From NCBI GenBank assembly GCA_905250025.1, contig CAJNOJ010000059.1, positions 1-41,278 of the forward strand: DNA of 41,278 nt, written 5' to 3'. This DNA is from Adineta ricciae (Eukaryota). The notes under the pieces are model-generated. The model ran no database searches. It was not told the DNA's origin and saw only the letters and a list, made by a program, of their open reading frames with translations. The translations under genes were made by a program, and so were the position numbers. This document shows positions 6,497 to 38,358 of the stretch, one piece after another (position 1 is the first letter of the stretch; each line of letters opens with the position of its first letter).

Positions 6497-9400
6497 ATGA
6501 GTAAAGCAACGAGTAGTACTGAAAACATAATTGGCGCTGGTCCAGTTTATCGTATTCCACCATATCATTATATCCATGTTTTGGATCAGAATACTAATGT
6601 CACACGATTAGAAATTGGTCCGAAAACATTTATTAAACAAGACAATGAAACGGTCATTCTCGGACCGGAAAAAATGATCACAGTTCCGTATGTATTGCTG
6701 TTAAAACATCGGTATGAATATGTTTGATGATGAAATTCGTTTAGACCACGTCACTATTGTGTTGTGGAATCACCAGTGGTACGTGATGATGCAGGAGAAG
6801 TTGTATTCGACGCAAACGGTCAAGCGAAATTGATTCACGCTGATTTGGACATTCGTCTTGCTCGACCTGATCAAGCTCCATTTCCTCTATATCCCGGTGA
6901 AGTTCTTCGACAAGTATAAATTTTGAAGGATGTAATCGATCAGAATAGAAAAACCTGTTTTCTGTTTTTCCTTGCAGCCTGTTACACCATTAAAAGTTGT
7001 TCCAGCTAATTCGGCACTACGACTAAAAGCGGTGCTCGATTTTCGAGACGAAACAACCGAAGAACAACGACGCGCCGGTGATGAATGGCTGTTTGAAGGT
7101 CCAGCCACTTATATTCCTCGCAAAGAGGTCAGCGTCGAAGAACAGATTCGTGCTACTGTTATCGGCTCTAATCAAGCTATTCGGCTTTGTGCGAAAAAAG
7201 AAATAACCGATCGAAATGGCGAACGACGTGTCACCGGGGAAGAATGGCTAGTCAAGAAAACCGGTGCCTATTTACCACTTGCCTATGTATGTTTGAAAAC
7301 GAGTTTTCCTTGTTTCTTTTTATTCATGATTGGCCATTTTTTAGGAAACAGTTGTATCAGTAGAAAATGCTTATGTATTAACTGATAAGAAAGCACTTCA
7401 TCTGCGTGCATTAAAAAGTTTCACCGATAATTTCGGTAAAGAACGTATGAATGGGGAAGAATGGCTTGTCACTCATGATGATACCGAAACGCATATTCTA
7501 AGTGTCTATGAACAGTTAGTTGCTGTTGTCGATGTGGTGACATTGAATTCTCGACAATATTGTGTTATCCTCGATCCAGTCGAAGATGGAAAACCGCAAT
7601 TAGGAAAAAAAGTTCGTGAGAAAAGTTGGACTTCGTTAATCTATGAATTTGTTTCGTTTCAATTAGAAATTAGTCGTTGGTGAAAAATCATTCTTTCTTC
7701 AACCTGGTGAAAAACTCGAGAATGGCATTCAAGATGTGTACATTCTAGGTGAAGATGAAGGTATTATTCTTAAATGTATTGAAGCGTTCGAAGATGAACA
7801 AGCCAAAGCGTCCCGAAATCCAGGCGATCGATGGATGATTCGTGGCCCGACGTAAGACTTCGATTCCTTCTTTGTTCTCCAATCGATATCTATTTGCTTT
7901 CTTTTAGTGAATACATTCCACCTACACAGGTCGAAGTCGTTACACGTCGTAAAGCAATGCCATTAGATGAAAACGAAGGTATCTATGTTCGTGACATTAA
8001 AACTGGCCGCGTACGATCTGTTATTGGTGAAACTTATATGCTAACACAAGACGAAGAACTTTGGCAAAAAGAACTACCTAAACAAGTTGAGGATTTGTTA
8101 ACGCGTGATGCACTAGCCGATCGAAATATTCCAACACGCAGTCAGACATCTGACAAAAATCAGTCTCAACAGACGACCGTATCGAAATCAACGAGTGCCA
8201 AACGCGATAAATCGAAAGTAGTCGTTTATCGTGTTGCACACAATGCCTGTGTTCAAATCTATGATTACAAAGCTAAAAAAGCACGAATCATCTTCGGTCC
8301 TGAACTCGTCATGCTCGGACCTGATGAACAATTTACATTGATTTCTTTGAGCGGTTGTGTTCCAAAGAAACCCAATCAAATTCAAACACTATGTTTACTC
8401 CTCGGACCTGACTTCTTCACCGACGTCATTGTCATTGAAACAGCAGATCATGCACGCTTATCATTACAGCTTTCATATAATTGGCATTTTCAAGTAGTTG
8501 ACAGAGCCGATGCGAAAGAGTCGGACAAATTGTTCTCTGTGCCTGACTTCGTTGGCGATGCAGCTAAGGCAATTGCTTCTCGTATTCGTGGAGCTGTTGC
8601 AGGAACACAATTTGACGACTTTCACAAAAACTCTGCTCAAATTATTCGTGCCGCTGTCTTTGGTTTCGACGCGCACCAGCATGTCCGTGATCAATTCATT
8701 TTCCCACAAAATAATCTTGTTATCACATCCATTGATATCCAAAGTGTTGAACCTGTCGATCAACGAACACGAGATGCTCTTCAAAAGAGTGTTCAACTAG
8801 CCATCGAAGTAGGTAGCTTGAGTATGCTTTATTCGGTGCTCAATTTGAATGATTTAGATTACCACAAATTCACAAGAAGCTGCCGCCAAACATGAAGCTT
8901 CTCGCCGTGAACAAGAAGCGAAAGGTTTATTAGAACGTCAACGTATCAAAGACGAAGCTGACGCAGAAGAAGTTCGAAAACAACTCTTAGAGTTACAAGC
9001 TCTATCAGCTGCTGTCGAATCGACCGGTCAAGCTAAGGCAGAAGCTCAAAGTCGTGCGGAATCCGCGCGTATCGAAGGCGAAGCTGCCGTCGAACAAGGT
9101 AAAAAACGACGCAAATCTCTCATTGATGAATCTACAGTTTACTTTTTACAGCTCGCCTCAAAGCTGAAGCTACTCGAATTGAAGCTGAAGCTGAATTGTT
9201 ACGTTTAAAACTGGCACGTGAAGCTGAAATCAAATTTTTGCACGATCAAAACGAATTAGAAATTACAAAGAAAAGTGAAATGTCAAGAATTGAAACTGAA
9301 AAATTCAAATTACAAGTGGAATCGATCGGTGCAGATACTATTCAATCGATTGCTACATCAGGCCCTGATACTCAGGTTAAACTTTTACAAGCACTCGGCC

Positions 9401-9552: not shown

Positions 9553-10365
9553 ATGTCCAATACGATTGCTGCTGAAGCCAAGACAGTATTGCAATCTGCC
9601 CCTTTCTTTGCTCTGTCTCGTTAATGAGTTCATCCTATTCTATGAAATGTAGTATGATTTTTTTGTAAAAGTATATATATAACTAAGTAATAAAACTGAA
9701 AGTACTTCGCCATAATCTGATGCTGCATGAGAAAATATGTACGAGTGTTTACGTTTACCACCACAAGCACAAACGTATCTTGTTAATGTAACAGATTTGC
9801 TTTCGTGCATTCTCTACGCACACTCTGAATTTCTAGGAAAGTTTACAGCATGCCTGACGTACAGAAAAGAATTGGTAAAACGATAGTTAGTAAAATCGTA
9901 TGCAACTAATCCATCGACAGATGGACTGACTAGTGTAATAATTGAAAGATAAATTATTATTCCGAGGCTAAACTTATAAGTACAGTCAAACCTGCCGATA
10001 GTGAACACTAACGGGACTGTTCAAAATGTGTTCACTATCTAGAGGTCTATTTACAGCAAAATCGATCGGGTGGATTGAATCATGCATTCAGAGGGAAGGA
10101 ATTCGCTGTGGAAAGTTTTACTCTAATTACATTTAGTTGTTTTTTAGATTATCTTGTTTACATATCGGTATTCTCGACTGTATGTAGTGCTCGAGAACAA
10201 AAGAATTAATGATTTAATTTGAACTCAGTTTCATAGAATGAGCCGATGGTCGTTTATTCTTCTGAATTGATAAAAGCAAATAGTACATATAGTTTTAAAA
10301 ATTTGACAAATCTCAGTTCTACGCAGTTATATGAAAATTTCAACTCAAAAGATTTTTTCTATTTC

Positions 10366-13300
10366 CTAGGAATTGTTTGATGATCCGATTAGATCCACTG
10401 CCGTATTGAAAAGATTGATTGGACTTCGTCCATCTGTGATCAACGTTGATTTTATACCCAGAGCTTGCAGAAGTTTAACCTAAACGAAGAGCACAGGCAT
10501 TAAACACTAAAAAAGTCAACTCTTTGTCAAAGTCTTACCTGATTATCTGGTCCGCTAGTGGCTATAGCTTGAATCGTTTTTGGTCCAATGGCAGTGACAT
10601 GTTGTTTGAATTCGTCAATTTCAATCTCAGCTAATCGTTTTGTTTTCTCGATTTCTAAATCCGCTGTCTGTTTCGAATAGGATAATTCTAATTCACGTGC
10701 TTGAGTTAATCGTAAAAGTTCAATATCAGCTTCGATTTTTGCTGCTTGAGCACGAAGAGTTGCTAAAAAGACAAGAGATACATTCGATCAAATTCTAGAT
10801 GGAAAGTGAACCAACCTTGTTCGACAGCAGCTTCGCCTTCAATCTTGGCTGCTTCAGCTCGTGATTGAGCTTCGGCACGTGATTGACCAGTAGATTCAAC
10901 AGCCGAGGAGAGTGCTTGCAGTTGTAATAAATGTCGACGTGCTTTCTCAGCTATTTCAAACAAAAAAAAACTATCCATATATACGGAATAGAAAGAAGAA
11001 CTTTATTTACCTTCGGCTTCGTCCGCGATTTTCTGCCGTTCCAAGTGACCTTTCGCTTCTTGTTCGGTTCGTGAGGCCATGTGTCTATAAAAGAAAAATG
11101 TCAACTGTTGCAGTTCCTATTCATATGATTCTGCCTACTTTGCTTGAGCTTCTTGCGAGTTTGTGGTAATCTAAATCATTCAAATTAAACACCAGAACAC
11201 ACTTACTCAAACTACTCACTTCAATAGCTAGTTGGACACTCTTCTGAAGAGCATCTCGTGTTCGTTGATCGACAGGTTCAACACTTTGGATATCAATGGA
11301 GGTAAGAACGAGATTGTTTTGTGGAAATACGAGATGATGGCTGATGCGTTTATCGTCTCCAAAACCAAAGACAGCTGTTCGGATAATCTTGGCAGAATTT
11401 TTATGAAAGTCGTCAAATGAAATACTGGCGACAGCGCCACGAATCTTTGCTGCAACTGCTTTACAAAAATCACCGACAAAGTCAGGTACAGAGAATAGTT
11501 TGGCAGTTTCTTTCTCATTTGCTCTGTCAGCCACTTGAAAATGCCAGTTGTAGGATAATCGAAGTGAAAGACGAGCATGATCACTGGATTCAATAGTTAC
11601 AAAATCACTTGAGAATTCTGGTCCCAATAGTAAACAAATCGCACGAATTTTGTTGGGCACTTTCGGTTTATCGCCAGATAAATTTAATACTGTAAATTGT
11701 TCATCAGGTCCGAGCATGACGAGTTCAGGACCGAAGATGATTCGTGCTTTTTTAGCTTTGTAATCATAGATTTGAACACAGGCATTGTGTGCAACACGAT
11801 AAACGACTACTTTCGATTTATCTCTTGCTGGTACATTTGTTGATGTAGATGATTTATCTTCGAGTGATCGAGGTTCTTGTAGTAGAAGTTGTTCAACTTG
11901 TTTGGGTAAATCTTTTTCCCACAGTTCTTCGTTTTCAGTTAAGAGATAAGTACTGCCTATAACCGAACGAATTTTACCAGTTTTGACATCTCGAACATAG
12001 ATGCCTTCATTGACATCCAGTGGAATTGCTTTTCGACGAAGTACAACAGAAGCTTCAATCGCTGGAATATAATCTTTTGGGCCACGAATCATCCAGCGAT
12101 CTCCAGGACTACGTAAGATTTTCTATTCAATAGAATTTTCCATATAGATTGGAGAAATATCAATGAGGATTGACTTACTTCATCCTCTTTAAATGTTTCA
12201 GTACAACGAAGAATTAAACCTTCATCTTCTTCCAGTACATAAACGTCTTGAATGCCATTTTCTAGTTTCTCACCAGGTTGAAGAAAAAATGATGTTTCTC
12301 CCTACAGACAAAATCCAATATAAATATTGAGCTGTACTCTACACTTTCGATTAATTTACTTTTATGAGTTTTCTTTTTCCTAGTTGTGGTTTGCCATCGG
12401 AGTCAACTGGATTTACAATGATACAATACTGACGTGAATTCAATACTGTAACAGAAACAATACCGACTACCTAAAAACCATCTCCTTAGATATTTTATTA
12501 AACTAAATTCATCTATCTGTACTTCTTCATAAACATCGGGGATGTGTGTTTCGGCATCGGTAACATAGATCAACCATTCTTCTCCGTGAAGACGTTTTCG
12601 TTTGAACGAATCAACGAATGTTCCCAACGCTCGAACATGCAATGCTTTCTACACAAGGATATCAATACATAGATGAACATGAAGTTGTGAATGAAAAATT
12701 ACTTTATCGGTTAAGACGTAAGCCTGAACAATTGAAACAACTTCTTCGTAAGCTAACGGTAAGTAGGAACCATTTGTACGATTAAGCCACTCTTCACCTG
12801 TTCGTCGTTCAATACCATTACGATCAGTCATTTCTTTTTTTGCACGTAAACGAACAGCTTCATTTGGTTTGAGAATAACTGCTTTGATTTGTTCTTCAAC
12901 ACTGACCTCTTTACGTGGAAAGTAGGTTCCTGAAAAACGAATCGGTTTCGAACGATATAATGGTATGAGCTTATTTTCTCTCACCTGGCCCACAAAATAG
13001 AAATTCATCTCCAGCACGTATCTGTTGACCTAGTTCATCAACAAAATCCAATACAGCACGAAGACGTAGTGCACAGTTCGGTTCGATCACTTTTAACGGT
13101 GTTACATTTTGTTTCAGGATCTCACCTGGATAAAGTGGAAAAGGTTCTTGAGCGAAACGTATATCAACATCTGAATGTAATAATTTGATTTGACCATTGG
13201 CATCGGTCATCACTTGACCATCTTTATCACGAACAGCTGGATTTTCGACAACACAATAATGGCGAGGTCTGTCAAAATTCAACAAACGGATTGATTGCGA

Positions 13301-21374: not shown

Positions 21375-23012
21375 ATGTCGGACGCGGCGGCAACAACAAA
21401 TGGTTTGATTTCAGAGAAATTTACGAAAATCGTTTTTTGATTTTGTTGTTCATTTTTATAGGAGTAAAGAATAAGTTTGATGGCGATGGCGTGGTATTTA
21501 AAGGCAAACTCATCGGTAGGAAGAAGAATAGATTTCTAATGCAACAAATATATTGTTCTTTTTTTGCGTTTGCTTTGCTCAATCAAGGAATGGAAGATTT
21601 ATCCATGGATCGTGACGAGAAAGTTTGTCTTGATTCAATGTTTAAGTTGAAAGCGGTAGTACGCGCTCGTGGAGAACATAAACAAAGAATTCAATTAAAT
21701 CTAACGATGAATGGAGTGAAAGTTTATGATGACACGTCGAAAGTAGGTGAATAAGAACCATTCATTATTGATAGAGATATTTTGTTTCTGTCTCAGACTT
21801 TAATTGCGTCTCATGAAGTTGAACGAGTCTCGTTCGTGGTTTTAGATCCACGTGACCAACGAGCATTTGGATATGTCTACAATACCAGCGACGATCGACA
21901 TCAATTCTGGGCAATTAAAACCGAACGACAAGCCGCTACAACTGTACTTGCCTTGAAAGAACTTTTTGAAACGGCATTTGAGGAATTTACTAAAGCAGAA
22001 AAAGAAAAAGTAAAAGCTACTTCAGAAGTAACACCTGCACCAACTCCAGTAGCAGAAGTAATTATATTCAGATGCATCTAAATTGATGAGATTCTTCAGT
22101 AACGCGCATAATATTATTGTTTCAGCAATCGACTTTGATATCTACGTCATCACCCACGACACCATCTCCTCAAGTAACAACACCACGAGTATGTATAGTC
22201 TTTCGTTATTTTTCCAATACGACCATGCGAATCTGTAGGCACCTGAAACCGATTCCATATGGGGAGATCTCACTTCGCCTGCAGCTCCAAGTGTAGCACC
22301 AGCACCTCAACAGGTACAACAACAACAACAATCAACACCTAATATCGATCTATGGGATGCAGGTGAACCCAATCTTATGGGAGGTCAGGCTGCTCAAAGT
22401 GTAAGTTCTTTTCAAATGTCATATTAGTATCATTGAGACGAAAATTTATTACATTGACAGTCTTCTGATGATATGTTTGGTTTACTTGGATCACCAACAC
22501 CATCGATACCAGCAGTCAATCAATCAATCCCGGCTGCCACTTCTCCCGCAGACGATCTATTTTCCATGTTTGCACCTGCTGCACCTGCTGCACCAGCGCC
22601 TGTCATTAGTAATACTGCCATTGCTCGACCACCACCACCACCACAACCAGCTATTATTCCCCAACAACCAAATTTACCCTTTGCTACACCCTTCGCAGGC
22701 ATTGTTCCTCAACAACAAAACTTACTCTTTTCCCAACCCGCACCTGCTGTTCCCCGACAACCGCCACCACCGCTACCACAACAGAACTTACTCTTTGCTG
22801 CACCTACGCCATTTGCCGCTCCTCAACAACTACCTCAGCAGAACTTACTCTTTTCCCAACCCGCACCTGTTGTTCCTCAACAACCATCACTACCACAACA
22901 ACAACAACAACAGCAGCCGAGCTTACTCTTAGCTACACCCGCACCTGCTACCGTTCCACCACCAGCTACCAAAGCAGTTGATGAATTCGATTTACTCGGT
23001 GACTTTGCCTAA
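21375..23012 (+). CDS. DAB: Disabled (Dab) family PTB-domain endocytic/signalling adaptor
   Basis: Seven exons: approx 21375-21402, 21462-21515, 21588-21742, 21797-22057, 22126-22188, 22239-22400, 22461-23012. The PTB domain aligns to Dab1/Dab2: VVFKGKLIG, DEKVCLDSMFKLKAVVRARGEHKQRIQLNLTMNGVKVYDD, TLIASHEVERVSFVVLDPRDQRAFGYVY...HQFWAIKTERQAATTVLALKELFE. The C-terminus is Pro/Gln-rich with repeated QQNLLFSQPAP motifs and ends DEFDLLGDFA. Confidence 0.85.
22700..22960 (+). repeat. Imperfect direct repeats of about 40-60 nt within the Dab C-terminal exon (four copies of a PQQNLLF(S/A)xPAPxVP peptide motif) plus CAA/CAG poly-Q runs
   Basis: Seen directly: aacttactcttttcccaacccgcacctg(c/t)tgttcc recurs at approx 22716 and 22842, with partial copies at approx 22785 and 22920. 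CAA runs are at approx 22316-22333 and 22896-22916. Confidence 0.65.
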
Positions 23013-29260: not shown

Positions 29261-31211
29261 TTATGCTGACTCGCCTTCCGTGTTCACAACGACAGTATTG
29301 TGTTCGATCTCATCCTTTTTCTGTCGACGATATTCACAATGGAAAAAACAGATAAAACAAATGACTAGAACCACCGAAAACGCAGCCAGAATATATACAG
29401 GAACTAAACAACGAGACATGAAACATAGGAAAAGCAATTGTGCAGTGTTTTACTCGAATAATCACGAATATCATCGAGTTGTCCATCTTGAATGTCACAT
29501 TTCTGAATACTCATTTGATGAGGTGAGGGTGACATTGTAAAATGTGGTAAGATGATAATCGCAAGTATACTTCCCACTTGACTAGAAACAGATTGGATGT
29601 AAACTTACATATGTTATTTGTAATTTTCTTACCTTGCCACCATGAAAATTCCCACTACAGTAGCTTCAGGAACTGGATGCGTACTAAATAAAAGTGTCAG
29701 TAAATGTTTAGATAAAGTCTGTCGCATCGAATTACATACGTTTCAATACTCAGATCTAAACTTAGTGGAAGTATAGGCGCATTTGATAATCCAGCGATAG
29801 CAAAGATCAGATAAAGCCAATACGATTTGACTTCGTTAACAATGAACTATTGATACATATGTATGAAATAGATAGTAATCAGAATGTTTACTTACTAATC
29901 CAATACACATCAATGAAATAACTCCAATGGAATACAGAATCTTTGTTAACTCTTCTAATTTTTTTGTTTTATCGGCAATGTAGCCCATGACAATACATCC
30001 GATCAAGCCAAATATAATAAAAGAACCGATACATAATCCCACTGCAATGTTGTCATAGCCAAATGGACACATAATCTGTTGTAACAATGTCGAAAGTGTA
30101 TTGTTATTCGATAGACCAATACCAATCGTAGCGAAGAGAATTAAATACGATTTCGATGTAATAAGCTGAATAATAAACATTGTTAATCAATCGATTTATC
30201 AGAGTTAAATTTCATACTTTTTTGAAAACTAATCGATAAGGAGTTTTGACATCAAGTGCTGCTAAACACGATGGTGTTGGTGGTTGTGATGATCGAACAG
30301 TTAAGGACAAAGCAGCTGCAAGAATTGCTGGAATTAATGTGAGATAAAGCTAAATGAATGAATAAAACAATCAATAGAAAGAGATGTTTTCGTTTGCATT
30401 GCATAGCACATACTAATAGAGGTATTTTATGTTCATTAGGAACGATCAATGGTGGTGTCACAGTACCAATGAAAACACCGAGAAAGTTAGCTTGAAAGAT
30501 ACATATGTAAAGATACGTTCTGACAGTGTTTAAATCTTACTAGCAAAACAGAGACTATTTGCTAATGTTCGTTGGTGTTCTGGAAACCACGCAAAAGCAA
30601 ATTTAGTTGGTAAAAACAGTGTAAATGTTTGAGCGAATGAGCAAATCAATTGACCTACAGAAATCAATCAAATAATTAATATGATTACTAAAAATATGTC
30701 TTACCGGTGAAAACAATTGGATAACGGCCATGCACCGAAACGAATCCCCATGTGCTAATCACTCGAAACGATCCACCGATTAGATTCAACCAAACACCTG
30801 TTAAAATCTGTCGAAAGAAATTCTATCCTTGCTGAATTTGATCATCTTTCGAGAACTTACTCCAAATCGAATACCGAAGCGATCAATGGCCCAGGTCGAT
30901 GGTAATGTAAATATACCACAGACGACCATAAATATAAGTGAAAGCCAGTTGACAGCTGCATAGGAAACGTCGAAATATACTTTAGCATAATTAGCGATTG
31001 AAGCAAAATTTATCCATAACTATACGAACGCGTGTTATTATTTTCAATGAAGTAACAAAAAAAGTTTACTCACAATTGAATTTGACAAATTTGCCAGACA
31101 GATACAGAGTAGATAAAGCCATCGTCGTCTGTATACTTTGAATTCTAGTGGAGTCACCAAAGGTGTTGGTGACGATGGACGAGAATCATCATTATCGATA
31201 GAGCCGTACAT
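29261..31211 (-). CDS. MFS transporter, FLVCR / SLC49-like, paralog A
   Basis: Multi-exon gene on the minus strand; exons only partly mapped. Start MYGSIDNDDSRPSSPTPLVTPLEFKVYRRRWLYLLCICLANLSNSI (the YRRRW.L..C.L block resembles FLVCR N-termini). Internal exons encode LYLTLIPAILAAALSLTVRSSQPPTPSCLAALDVK and QQIMCPFGYDNIAVGLCIGSFIIFGLIGCIVMGYIADKTKKLEE. It ends ...HCEYRRQKKDEIEHNTVVVNTEGESA with the stop at 29261-29263. Confidence 0.7.
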
Positions 31212-31286
31212 CTAGAAATTACGCAATCACATGAAATAACATCGAATGACATGTTATGACTATCGAGTTGGTGTCATTCGCTAACT
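31212..31286. promoter_or_regulatory. About 75-bp head-to-head intergenic spacer between MFS paralog A (minus) and the NMNAT-kinase gene (plus): putative bidirectional promoter or twin trans-splice acceptor region
   Basis: The ATG of the minus-strand MFS gene is at 31209-31211 and the ATG of the plus-strand ORF is at 31287. On the minus strand aatttctag directly precedes ATG. Confidence 0.4.
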
Positions 31287-32774
31287 ATGATCGACACCGA
31301 CAAACTACTCTTGCCTCTATCCGATGCAAAAAAGAATATTGTCTTACTGTTAAATGGATGTTTCAATCCAATACACAACAATCACATTCGTCTCTTAGAA
31401 GTCGCACGCGAACATCTAAATACGTTGGATACATATCATATCGTTGGTGGATATGTTTCTCCAACTCATGATGCCGCTATTCAACGGAAAATATCGACTA
31501 TTCATGCAACATGGCAAAATCGTCTCGAAATGTGTCGACTAGCTGTTCGAGATTCATCATGGATTATGGTAGATGGATGGTTAGTCTCGCAAGAGAGAAA
31601 TATCGGTGCTCAACAATCTAAACAGCATTTAAAAGATTTCCTGTGTAAATCTTATCCTTCGATTGAAGTTGTATCGGTATGTGGTGGTGATGCTTTACCA
31701 AAATTGAAAGTAACATTTAAAAAAGAATTGGTAATATGCGTAAATAATCGACCGATTGAAGATTTCGACTTTGACGAATGGTTTCATTCACCAGCCATCG
31801 AACAATTTCATCATAATATCATTCTCATACATGATAATCAATGTAGTAAATACATAAGTAGTACGAATATTCGTCGACGAATCAGTGAAAATCGTTTTGA
31901 TTTATTGATTGATGATCTTCATCCATCAGTGCTCGATTACCATCGTGAACAAGAAATCACTTATCGTTCGGCAGATGAAACTGTTCTTTGGTCTGAACTC
32001 GGCGGAAATGACGGTGTTGTACTTGGACAAGGTCGATGTGCGACGGTTTATCAGAAAGAATATAAACATCGACATGTTGCTGTAAAAGTTATACGGGAGC
32101 GTAGACAATTTGTGAACGAATTGAAAGTTTTAACACTATTGGCTAATGAAACATCATATCATGTAAATCTCATTGAAATATATGGCATAGGTGATCAGTT
32201 TTGTGTCATGGAAAAATGTGATATAGATCTTCTTTCATACATTGAGAAGAATCGAATGGTAAAAAGCCAGACAATAACAACAATTTTCCCAAATTCACAG
32301 TGGTTAAGTTTCATCAAACAAATGTTGACTGGATTTGTTCATTTGATTTCACTTGGCATTCTTCATCGTGATATAAAGACAGATAATATTCTCCTATCCA
32401 ATATGATTGTTAAAATATCTGATTTCAGTGTGTCAGTCAATTTGAGTTCCATGACTAAAATGCCAGTGCGAGGTTCGATGCGTCATTACCCACCGGAATC
32501 TATCAATGATAAGCAAATTTACACCGAAAAATCGGATGTTTTCATGTTTGGATGCTTACTTTATGAAATTGTTCATGGTGGACAACGCGTTTGGCATGAA
32601 GTCGACACATCTGAAGTTGTCAAGCGACGATTAAACGGTGAAAAACCATTATTTTCCGTGCAATGTGAACCATGGTATTTGGACGCGGTGACACACGATT
32701 GTTGGGCATTCAATAGTGACCAACGACCAACATTTGAACAACTATTACAGAATACATTTATACGAAATAATTAA
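31287..32774 (+). CDS. Bifunctional-looking fusion protein: N-terminal NMNAT-like (nicotinamide/nicotinate mononucleotide adenylyltransferase) nucleotidyltransferase domain fused to a C-terminal protein kinase domain; intronless, 495 aa
   Basis: Single uninterrupted ORF. Residues about 10-235 carry both nucleotidyltransferase signatures of the NMNAT family: the (H/T)xxH motif in LLNGCFNPIHNNHIRLLE and the C-terminal ISSTNIRRRI motif (compare ISSTKIRRAL in NMNAT1). Intermediate blocks are collinear (VSVCGGDALPKL, ELVICVNNRPIED, NIILIHDNQ). Residues about 240-495 are a eukaryotic protein kinase: a Gly-loop-like LGQGRCATVY, VAVKVI (beta3 Lys), HRDIKTDNILL (catalytic loop), KISDFSVS (DFG to DFS), YPPE, and a TKL-like C-lobe CWAFNSDQRPTF. 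Confidence 0.8.
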   Translation: MIDTDKLLLPLSDAKKNIVLLLNGCFNPIHNNHIRLLEVAREHLNTLDTYHIVGGYVSPTHDAAIQRKISTIHATWQNRLEMCRLAVRDSSWIMVDGWLVSQERNIGAQQSKQHLKDFLCKSYPSIEVVSVCGGDALPKLKVTFKKELVICVNNRPIEDFDFDEWFHSPAIEQFHHNIILIHDNQCSKYISSTNIRRRISENRFDLLIDDLHPSVLDYHREQEITYRSADETVLWSELGGNDGVVLGQGRCATVYQKEYKHRHVAVKVIRERRQFVNELKVLTLLANETSYHVNLIEIYGIGDQFCVMEKCDIDLLSYIEKNRMVKSQTITTIFPNSQWLSFIKQMLTGFVHLISLGILHRDIKTDNILLSNMIVKISDFSVSVNLSSMTKMPVRGSMRHYPPESINDKQIYTEKSDVFMFGCLLYEIVHGGQRVWHEVDTSEVVKRRLNGEKPLFSVQCEPWYLDAVTHDCWAFNSDQRPTFEQLLQNTFIRNN

Positions 32775-33198
32775 AAGAAAGAAATCAGCAGGTTAAGCTT
32801 ATAATAAACTACCAATGACAGAATATGAAATAAGAAATGTAGAAACCAGCGACATCTGTGTGAATGATCGATTCGAAACAGGCGTTGTCAGTTGTAACTC
32901 AATACTTTGAAGATCGATACACTAATTGAGAACTTCTTCGAATAGAAGTATGTCGAGGTGAAATTTATTTCGAGAAATAGATGAATATGTATAAAATTGC
33001 AAGTCAGCTTTAGTTGACTCATTATGATTATTATTCATTGAATTACAATACAACAACGAAAAGAATTAAATCACAATATACATCGTTTGAAAGCTGAAGT
33101 GTGATGTAAAGCATACCAAGTTACCGAAAGAATGTCCTTCGATAATAAAACAACTTTTGTGCGGATAAATTGTGGATTGTCATAATTCGTATGTGCAA

Positions 33199-37311: not shown

Positions 37312-38358
37312 ATGGGCAATTCAAGAAGTAACTACGAACGACATGAAGATGACGAACAACAACAACGAATGGTTATCGGCAAAGAATTTCGTCTTCTTCT
37401 CGGCCAACTTCGCTTATCATCGGATTTAATTAAACGACATAAGATTTTGTTTCGCAACAAACAACAGTACCATCGAGATCCGTCGTTCTCGTCATCAAAT
37501 TCAACCATAGCATCGTCGGCATCGTTTGATCAACCGAATTCAGCTGTATCATTCATTCAACTCGATATTCCGACATCGCCGCTCGATGCAAAAGAATTCG
37601 ATACTCATGCATTCATGCAGTATCTTCTTCAACAAGAATCCTATGGTAAAGAACTTTCGCATGTCTTTCGAATTCCAATTAATATAACAAAAACTCATAA
37701 GATTCGCACGAAAACATTGCCAACAATGAAAATTGCCGCTGTTTATTATGAACAGTCATGTTCAACACATGACTTGAATATTGAAATGCTCTCATTAGAT
37801 TATGAAACTGAACTGGAGCGAAAAATCGAACAGTTCAATGACAAAAATATCCTATCTATTTATATTTCAAGTAAGTTTTTAATAAACGAATTCTTTCACA
37901 ATCTATTCTTCTGTCAATTCCATTCAGAATCATCAGCCTATGTAATTTATACGAAAAGTTCATCCCTACACAGTAAATATAAACTCATACGCTCGACAAC
38001 AATGTCTAAAACAGCACTTGACAATTTTGAATGGCTTCATCCTTTTATCGACTACTCAAACTTAGGGTATCGCTTGTGCGGAATAATTCCCTTCGCGAAT
38101 TGTCCAATGGAAAACTCTCTAACTATCTATTGGATATTCGAACAAGTGGATACCAATGAAACGATTCAGTATGACTATTCTCTTATCGAATGTCAATTGA
38201 AAGTATCTTCGACTCCTAATTGGTATTCGTTACTGAATCTAATGGTCAAACAAGAATGGAAATTGGTGGCAACGTTGGATTATAATCAAAAGAAAAAGAC
38301 TAATGAACAAACCTATTTCTTATTGTTCTTTCAAAGATTGAAACATTTGCGAGGTTAG
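37312..38358 (+). CDS. Hypothetical protein with an N-terminal MGNSRS N-myristoylation-type motif; family not recognised
   Basis: ORF of 348 aa starting MGNSRSNYERHEDDEQQQ (Gly2 and Ser6 fit the myristoylation consensus). A probable 57-nt in-frame intron lies at approx 37871-37927 (gtaagt...cattcag). Removing it replaces the odd hydrophobic SKFLINEFFHNLFFCQFHSE with a single K. No known domain recognised. Confidence 0.5.
   Translation: MGNSRSNYERHEDDEQQQRMVIGKEFRLLLGQLRLSSDLIKRHKILFRNKQQYHRDPSFSSSNSTIASSASFDQPNSAVSFIQLDIPTSPLDAKEFDTHAFMQYLLQQESYGKELSHVFRIPINITKTHKIRTKTLPTMKIAAVYYEQSCSTHDLNIEMLSLDYETELERKIEQFNDKNILSIYISSKFLINEFFHNLFFCQFHSESSAYVIYTKSSSLHSKYKLIRSTTMSKTALDNFEWLHPFIDYSNLGYRLCGIIPFANCPMENSLTIYWIFEQVDTNETIQYDYSLIECQLKVSSTPNWYSLLNLMVKQEWKLVATLDYNQKKKTNEQTYFLLFFQRLKHLRG

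Follow-up and report, generated by a model that had tools for sequence, protein, structure and literature searches.

The 41,278-nucleotide stretch of Adineta ricciae DNA analyzed here (contig CAJNOJ010000059.1, called the window below) carries a gene whose predicted product joins a domain related to nicotinamide mononucleotide (NMN) adenylyltransferases (NMNATs) to a eukaryotic protein kinase domain. This fusion gene occupies positions 31287..32774 of the plus strand, on which all features described below reside unless noted otherwise. As proposed in the initial annotation of the window, which was made by inspection of the sequence, the gene consists of one intronless open reading frame (ORF) that begins with an ATG, encodes 495 amino acids followed by a stop codon, and includes zero internal stops. 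The motifs quoted in support of that proposal (GCFNPIHNNH, ISSTNIRR, VAVK, HRDIKTDN and DFS) are all located where they were said to be. A candidate polyadenylation signal (AATAAA, 32803..32808) is located 29 nt past the stop codon and is kept in a second A. ricciae copy of the gene.

The fusion is a real and conserved single-exon gene of bdelloid rotifers. Orthologues are called as single-exon genes in A. ricciae (L001), A. vaga (L006), Rotaria (L007 and L008) and Didymodactylos (L009), and the uninterrupted ORF recurs in independent assemblies of at least eight bdelloid species as well as in many metagenome contigs. In a chromosome-scale assembly of A. vaga, the gene maps 8.2 Mb along a chromosome of 13.9 Mb, and its neighbours there are ordinary animal genes (ACE, HIT, Cript, cyclophilin and LSM). 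Gene order is also maintained in both Adineta and Rotaria, with HIT, Cript, cyclophilin, an MFS transporter gene on the minus strand, and a gap of ~80 bp preceding the fusion gene. That such an ORF arose by mis-assembly, by contamination, or by the reading of two adjacent genes as one has a negligible probability, and these artefacts are effectively excluded by its recurrence among ordinary animal genes in independent assemblies, by the match in GC content between the ORF (0.364) and the window (0.361), by the conservation of the linker between the two domains, and by the existence of protist homologues whose domain order is identical to that of the bdelloid fusion.

Patterns of sequence change likewise concern both parts of the protein. 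The nearest protein is the second A. ricciae copy, which exhibits 94% identity and has the same gene neighbourhood. The two copies are separated by a dS value of ~0.10, and the dN/dS ratio between them is ~0.23 overall, with values of 0.22 for the NMNAT-like half and 0.24 for the kinase half. Residue conservation is similarly alike in the two halves (0.77 and 0.78) when assessed with an alignment of 34 orthologues, which comprises 33 bdelloid sequences plus that of Willaertia. Purifying selection acts on the NMNAT-like half and on the kinase half. Residue conservation given below refers to this alignment or, where protists are included more broadly, to an alignment of 13 rotifer and protist fusion proteins.

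The NMNAT-like domain and its acceptor pocket

The N-terminal half (residues ~14-227, 31326..31967) is an NMNAT-like nucleotidyltransferase domain of the HIGH superfamily. Residues 22-198 match the Pfam model CTP_transf_like with an E value of 1.5e-14 and a score of 54.8 bits (cutoff 21), and the best NCBIfam model for this half is TIGR00482 (NMN/NaMN adenylyltransferase), with an E value of 7.3e-21. The score obtained with TIGR00482 (75.1 bits) is below the curated equivalog cutoff of 112.45, and only the superfamily-level CTP_transf_like model passes its own cutoff. When the N-terminal half is compared with solved structures, the matches include mouse NMNAT3 (5z9r, E 7e-19), human NMNAT3 and a plant NMNAT, with E values ranging from 7e-19 to 3e-17. 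The three-dimensional model of the domain is predicted to have the NMNAT fold, and its top matches by both sequence and structure are authentic NMNATs.

Elements associated with ATP are retained in this domain. The (H/T)xxH ATP-binding and catalytic motif is represented by GCFNPIHNNH (residues 24-33, 31356..31385), in which G24, F26, P28, H30 and H33 are invariant in both alignments. The same is true for S192 and R196 of ISSTNIRR (residues 190-197, 31854..31877), which corresponds to the SxxxxR ATP-phosphate-binding motif. The basic residues R67 and K68 (31485-31490), together with R196 and R197, align to K55, K56, R205 and K206 of mouse NMNAT3, and K68 and R196 are invariant within this retained basic patch. 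These features suggest that the N-terminal half descends from a eukaryotic NMNAT and keeps the ATP-binding and catalytic apparatus of its ancestor, as represented by HxxH, SxxxxR and the basic patch.

A different picture emerges for the pocket that accepts the second substrate. The canonical ~10-residue ‘SFxxPxxW’ loop that follows GxDxL is absent from the whole fusion clade, as evident in two independent alignments (a HMMER alignment to 5z9r and 9rpk, and an L-INS-i alignment with canonical NMNATs). In the A. ricciae protein, CGGDAL is followed by the short helix PKLKVTF (31680..31718) at the site of the loop deletion, and the structural models predict one helix at residues 134-144 where canonical NMNATs show a helix, a loop and a second helix. 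The initial annotation had considered all of the collinear blocks between the two ATP motifs to be present, which does not hold for this Trp-bearing loop. The deleted loop carries the nicotinamide-stacking residue W169 in human NMNAT1, whose NMN site is described as Ser16, Thr95 and Trp169. A W169A change abolishes the activity of the human enzyme and serves as the standard catalytically dead mutant.

Two clade-specific elements are found in the same part of the protein. The aromatic-x-x-Thr element of canonical NMNATs (W92 to T95 in human NMNAT1) is replaced by N105-I-G107-A108, of which N105-I-G107 (31599..31607) constitutes an N-x-G element with N105 and G107 conserved at 90% or more across the rotifer and protist fusions. 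In addition, the loop FDFDEW (31764..31781) follows the central strand VICVNNR, with F160 invariant and D161 and W165 nearly invariant among the 34 orthologues. The majority pattern of this loop in the clade is ‘FDxxxW’, and it is a candidate for a replacement wall of the acceptor pocket. Although the nicotinamide-ring pocket formed by the W169 loop and the W92/T95 element was not found, the conservation of the replacement N-x-G and FDxxxW elements suggests that the pocket has been rebuilt, rather than that it has decayed and been lost. The earlier view of this domain as a plausibly active NMNAT is doubtful. It retains the support of the intact ATP motifs, and is weakened by the deletion of the Trp loop, by the replacement of W92/T95, and by a score under the equivalog cutoff.

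The kinase domain and the interdomain linker

The C-terminal half (residues 244-492, 32016..32762) is a protein kinase domain of the tyrosine kinase/tyrosine kinase-like (TK/TKL) type. PK_Tyr_Ser-Thr is the best Pfam model for these residues (match at 245-488, E 4.5e-37), and Pkinase is also matched (E 5.5e-32). The corresponding scores of 128.2 and 111.6 bits far exceed the cutoffs of 23.1 and 31.7, and the match covers profile positions 6-256 of 258, such that the domain is complete, as originally claimed. Profile searches had been suggested as a means to examine both halves of the protein, and the matches to CTP_transf_like and to both kinase models are indeed significant, whereas TIGR00482, despite an E value of 7e-21, does not reach its cutoff. 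Sequence matches of the C-terminal half among solved structures include FAK, BTK, KIT and EGFR, Foldseek matches include FGFR2, RET, KIT and Src (E ~1e-18), and a fold search against the PDB with the full-length model returned kinases only.

Residues needed for phosphoryl transfer are conserved. The beta3 lysine K267 of VAVK (residues 264-267, 32076..32087) is invariant, and the alphaC glutamate E278 (32118-32120) is nearly so. Likewise, H360, R361, D362 and N367 of the catalytic loop HRDIKTDN (residues 360-367, 32364..32387) are invariant, as are D379 and F380 of DFS (residues 379-381, 32421..32429), which is a variant of the DFG motif. The Lys at position 364 is specific to bdelloids, and the catalytic loop is variable among protist members. 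At the third DFG position, bdelloids carry Ser or Thr, Willaertia carries His, and the remaining protist fusions carry Gly. Substitutions of this glycine are compatible with activity in some kinases. The glutamate of the (A)PE motif (E404), the subdomain IX aspartate (D417) and the subdomain XI arginine (R480) are invariant or nearly so in bdelloids as well as in the protist homologues. The activation segment and P+1 region carry RGSMRHYPPE (32469..32498), which follows the pattern ‘RGSxRHYxPE’, a signature specific to those fusions in which the NMNAT-like domain precedes the kinase.

Judged by these sequence features, the domain is TK/TKL-like and probably active. Its catalytic loop looks Ser/Thr-like, and its best structural matches are tyrosine kinases. 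Relative to TK/TKL kinases such as FAK, FGFR2, RET, KIT and BTK, the domain is equally complete and bilobal and has all catalytic residues, but it is distinguished by DFS in place of DFG, by its unusual activation segment, and by its NMNAT-like N-terminal partner. A NADK-like role, in which the kinase domain would phosphorylate NAD, was also considered and was rejected because all of the C-lobe features of protein kinases are present and the best matches are TK/TKL kinases.

The two domains are separated by a short linker (residues 227-243, 31965..32015) in which W235 and S236 are nearly invariant among the 34 orthologues. The full-length structural model has a pTM of 0.79, and the linker has pLDDT values of 82-89 in this model, compared with 41 in a model of the N-domain by itself. 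These predicted values fit a protein in which the two domains meet at a fixed interface.

Distribution and origin of the fusion

The N-domain was used as the query for an exhaustive HMMER search of 1.84 billion cluster representatives, and a kinase profile and Pfam were then used to score the matches. The fusion architecture is shared by more than 30 orthologue clusters of bdelloids and by several homologues from protists. The combination first noted at this one locus is therefore not a one-off, and further proteins with an NMNAT-like domain followed by a kinase domain are P0059, P0060, P0061, P0063, P0068, P0073, P0083 and P0194. Fusion proteins are already present in public databases, where they have only automatic names (‘protein kinase domain-containing’). 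The named sources outside of rotifers are Willaertia magna (Heterolobosea) and Paratrimastix pyriformis (Metamonada), other examples come from environmental eukaryotes, and a sequence from Bolivina (Foraminifera) also groups in the fusion clade. The fusion was found in no other animal in all of the searches made. A search with a profile of the whole fusion family produced no new named taxa, and even some of the query members were not recovered by it.

In a neighbour-joining (NJ) tree, all fused N-domains are placed in one weakly supported clade, within which the bdelloid sequences form one sub-clade, and the median bootstrap replicate places every fused sequence inside a 31-member clade of 118. 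A single origin of the fusion is suggested by the shared loop deletion and N-x-G element, and by the private kinase signature RGSxRHYxPE. The most economical reading of the distribution is an ancient transfer from a microbial eukaryote to the bdelloid ancestor, as the gene lacks introns, is present in all bdelloid genera sampled, occupies a fixed syntenic position, and has protist relatives.

One member of the fusion clade stands alone. P0057 (L010, 1685-2383), a 232-amino-acid protein, groups in the tree as the sister of the fusion protein from Didymodactylos. No frame of the AT-rich 5.9-kb contig that encodes P0057 contains kinase-coding sequence, and the stop codon of its gene is followed by AATAAA. 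This protein is either a kinase-less paralogue or the product of domain loss, and its existence indicates that the NMNAT-like domain has a function of its own.

Other architectures place a similar domain beside kinase folds. P0041, a protein of 728 amino acids from Logan assemblies, has the reverse order, with a typical TKL kinase at the N terminus and an NMNAT-like domain at the C terminus. This kinase does not carry the RGSxRHYxPE signature, which points to an independent fusion event. Three proteins from environmental eukaryotes (P0102, P0137 and P0334) combine a fructosamine-3-kinase (FN3K) domain with a C-terminal, short-loop NMNAT-like domain, an architecture for which no description was found in full-text literature searches. 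As far as their sequences indicate, there are thus two more architectures of independent origin in which the short-loop NMNAT-like domain accompanies a kinase-fold domain. One of the three FN3K proteins has an N-terminal chromodomain as well. Additional combinations recovered were WD40 with an NMNAT-like domain (P0071 and P0086) and NAD synthase with an NMNAT-like domain in proteins of ~1200-1375 amino acids (P0104 and P0192). In P0104, two enzymes of the NAD pathway are linked with a 2OG-Fe(II) oxygenase domain.

Possible functions and genomic surroundings

The initial annotation held that no such architecture had been described, and full-text literature searches aimed at an NMNAT-like/protein kinase fusion indeed yielded no description of one. 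The fusion is an uncharacterised yet widespread domain architecture assembled from two well-known families. Known fusions of a HIGH transferase with a kinase, such as NadR, RibF, HldE, PAPS synthase and CoA synthase, involve small-molecule kinases of the P-loop or ribokinase type that act at an adjacent pathway step. NadR, in which an NMNAT is joined to ribosylnicotinamide kinase, is not the same system, as the protein studied here includes a eukaryotic-type protein kinase and an NMNAT-like domain of the eukaryotic lineage rather than of NadR or NadM. Eukaryotic NMNATs (human NMNAT1-3, mouse NMNAT3 5z9r, fungal Nma1/9iw1 and plant 9rpk) are related in fold to the N-domain. However, this domain has no ‘SFxxPxxW’ Trp loop, has N-x-G in place of aromatic-x-x-Thr, gains the FDxxxW loop, carries His rather than Thr in the first motif, scores under the TIGR00482 cutoff, and is fused to a protein kinase. 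The automated label ‘NMN adenylyltransferase’ (JGI names) may therefore be wrong for members of the fusion clade.

We prefer an interpretation, to which we assign an even chance of being correct, wherein an active TK/TKL kinase has a rigid connection to a divergent module of NMNAT origin, the acceptor or ligand pocket of which has been altered, and wherein nucleotide chemistry or status is coupled to kinase output. The C-terminal half would be a TK/TKL-type protein kinase capable of catalysis. The N-terminal module would bind ATP and probably still transfer from it, serving as a paralogous NMNAT-like adenylyltransferase or as an adenine/pyridine-nucleotide-binding module with altered acceptor specificity, and not as a housekeeping NAD+ synthase. 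The short ordered linker would hold this module against the kinase, and nucleotide binding or turnover could thereby be coupled with kinase output. The gene would have reached the bdelloid ancestor from a microbial eukaryote. Several observations weigh against parts of this interpretation. Stacking of nicotinamide might be restored by F144, F160 or W165, in which case NAD+ could still be made, and if bdelloids have no separate canonical NMNAT, then the fusion must be their NAD+ synthase. The DFG glycine is replaced by Ser in the A. ricciae kinase, the evidence for interdomain coupling comprises the pTM and the linker pLDDT of predicted models, and the NJ bootstrap values are weak at 42% for the fusion clade and 63% for bdelloids when Didymodactylos is omitted.

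We consider it unlikely that the protein is instead a bifunctional enzyme, with an N-domain that is a fully active NMN/NaMN adenylyltransferase making NAD+ while physically linked to phospho-signalling. The invariance of both diagnostic NMNAT motifs would be expected for such an enzyme, as would best sequence and structure matches to authentic NMNATs and TIGR00482 as the top NCBIfam model. It is also in keeping with this possibility that no canonical rotifer NMNAT is among the matches listed, which is a weak test. Specifically, no rotifer is among the 120 matches listed for a canonical-type, sponge-like NMNAT query (P0163), for which the k-mer prefilter admitted only 443 candidates, and a W-loop screen of 150 representatives yielded nine candidates of which none is attributable to rotifers. 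However, the W169 loop is deleted and W92/T95 are replaced throughout the clade, and loss of W169 by itself is sufficient to inactivate human NMNAT1. The TIGR00482 score of 75 bits is also well under the cutoff of 112. Furthermore, a separate canonical NMNAT (P0126) is present in Naegleria, which belongs to the Heterolobosea, as does Willaertia with its fusion, and by analogy this suggests that the fused copy is an extra paralogue.

Less probable still is that the NMNAT-like domain is a non-catalytic ‘reader’ of phosphate or phospho-proteins, or a chaperone-like docking module. Its basic pocket would then bind phospho-sites on substrates or on the activation segment of the protein itself, possibly in competition with ATP, NMN or NAD. 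A precedent exists in mouse NMNAT3, whose pocket for ATP and NMN also binds phospho-Ser sites of tau by way of K55, K56, R205 and K206, with tau competing against the two substrates (Ma et al. 2020, eLife, PMC7136026). The equivalent basic residues R67, K68, R196 and R197 are kept in the fusion, with K68 and R196 invariant, and the loss of nicotinamide-specific elements with retention of phosphate-binding elements is also what a reader might exhibit. In addition, yeast Nma1 is reported to modulate PHO signalling in a manner that is independent of catalysis (PMC13519963). The phospho-tau chaperone shares this basic patch, but it is a fully canonical enzyme that acts in trans, whereas the domain examined here is divergent, resides in cis with a kinase, and is known from sequence. 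Two further observations disfavor a purely non-catalytic role. H30 and H33 are strictly invariant from rotifers to distant protists, which is more than phosphate binding alone should need, and a standalone member of the fusion clade exists.

More generally, we tentatively suggest, while regarding it as somewhat unlikely, that these proteins constitute a class of metabolite-coupled protein kinases that bdelloids captured from protists. In this class, the NMNAT-derived module would sense NAD+, NMN or ATP, make a non-canonical adenylylated product, or read phospho-sites in a nucleotide-competitive manner, and would thereby gate the TK/TKL kinase. If this is true, then the recurrent NMNAT-TKL, TKL-NMNAT and FN3K-NMNAT pairings would point to a functional partnership of a general kind. 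Interplay in trans between NMNAT activity and kinase signalling is known, examples being the NMNAT2/SARM1/MAPK axis of axon degeneration and the binding of NMNAT to phospho-tau. A selected and conserved fusion in cis can be viewed as a natural experiment in which adenine/pyridine-nucleotide chemistry has been wired to protein phosphorylation. A rebuilt acceptor pocket might signify a new substrate or ligand for the NMNAT-type fold, and the gene would also represent a probable eukaryote-to-bdelloid transfer that has been kept in all bdelloid genera sampled.

An association with NAD-based immune signalling, which had also been raised, receives no support from the gene content of the locus, where the fusion has a housekeeping context of ACE, HIT, Cript, cyclophilin, MFS and LSM genes. 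PADLOC returned only generic kinase-domain matches (mad6 and PD-T4-6), none of which extend over the N-domain. The mad6 match to the kinase domain (32016-32762) has a score of 162 bits, which is above those of the Pfam kinase models (112-128 bits). With the NCBIfam model MADS6 the score is 47 bits against a cutoff of 460, and the mad6 match is probably due to how the PADLOC model is composed, and not to homology with a defence system.

The fusion gene is arranged head-to-head with an FLVCR-like MFS gene on the minus strand, as had been noted. This neighbour starts at 31211, exactly 75 bp from the fusion gene, and its first exon spans 31044-31211 (minus strand). It contains introns, as evident by the L001 gene call of 1955 nt for 473 amino acids. 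The divergent intergenic region between the two genes (31212..31286) has counterparts of ~75-85 bp in L001 (~9925-10000), L003 (1-106), L006 (5915-6000), and L007 and L008 (5922-6000). The maintenance of this spacing across Adineta and Rotaria implies a shared bidirectional promoter, and co-regulation of the two genes is possible. An out-of-frame ATG located 31 nt upstream of the main start, within the 75-bp region, opens an overlapping ORF of 71 amino acids (31256-31471). A search of all loci for a candidate sequence of the bdelloid spliced leader gave no match. The short contigs L003 and L004 were considered as possible cDNAs, and both proved to be genomic.

Several other features of the window were observed. 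The fusion gene had been described as the only sizeable intron-free gene of the window apart from that for a G protein-coupled receptor, and this is doubtful given an uninterrupted ORF of 348 amino acids at 37312..38358. This apparently intron-poor ORF has no Pfam match, and it is conserved, with a 329-amino-acid counterpart that likewise lacks Pfam matches at the second A. ricciae copy and in A. vaga. Two opposed long ORFs, at 7831-8895 (plus strand) and 11121-12092 (minus strand), both cover one and the same region of major vault protein (MVP), including Vault_4, Vault_3 and MVP_shoulder. They are separated by ~2 kb and have the appearance of MVP genes, or fragments of such genes, arranged as an inverted pair. 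Finally, a low-complexity coding stretch rich in Pro, Gln and Ala (21782-23012) ends with DEFDLLGDF and coincides with a compositional outlier at 22-23 kb (GC content 0.45, GC skew -0.35). The ORF located 5′ of this stretch resembles a PTB/PID domain by eye, and L001 contains a syntenic gene with a weak match to PID.

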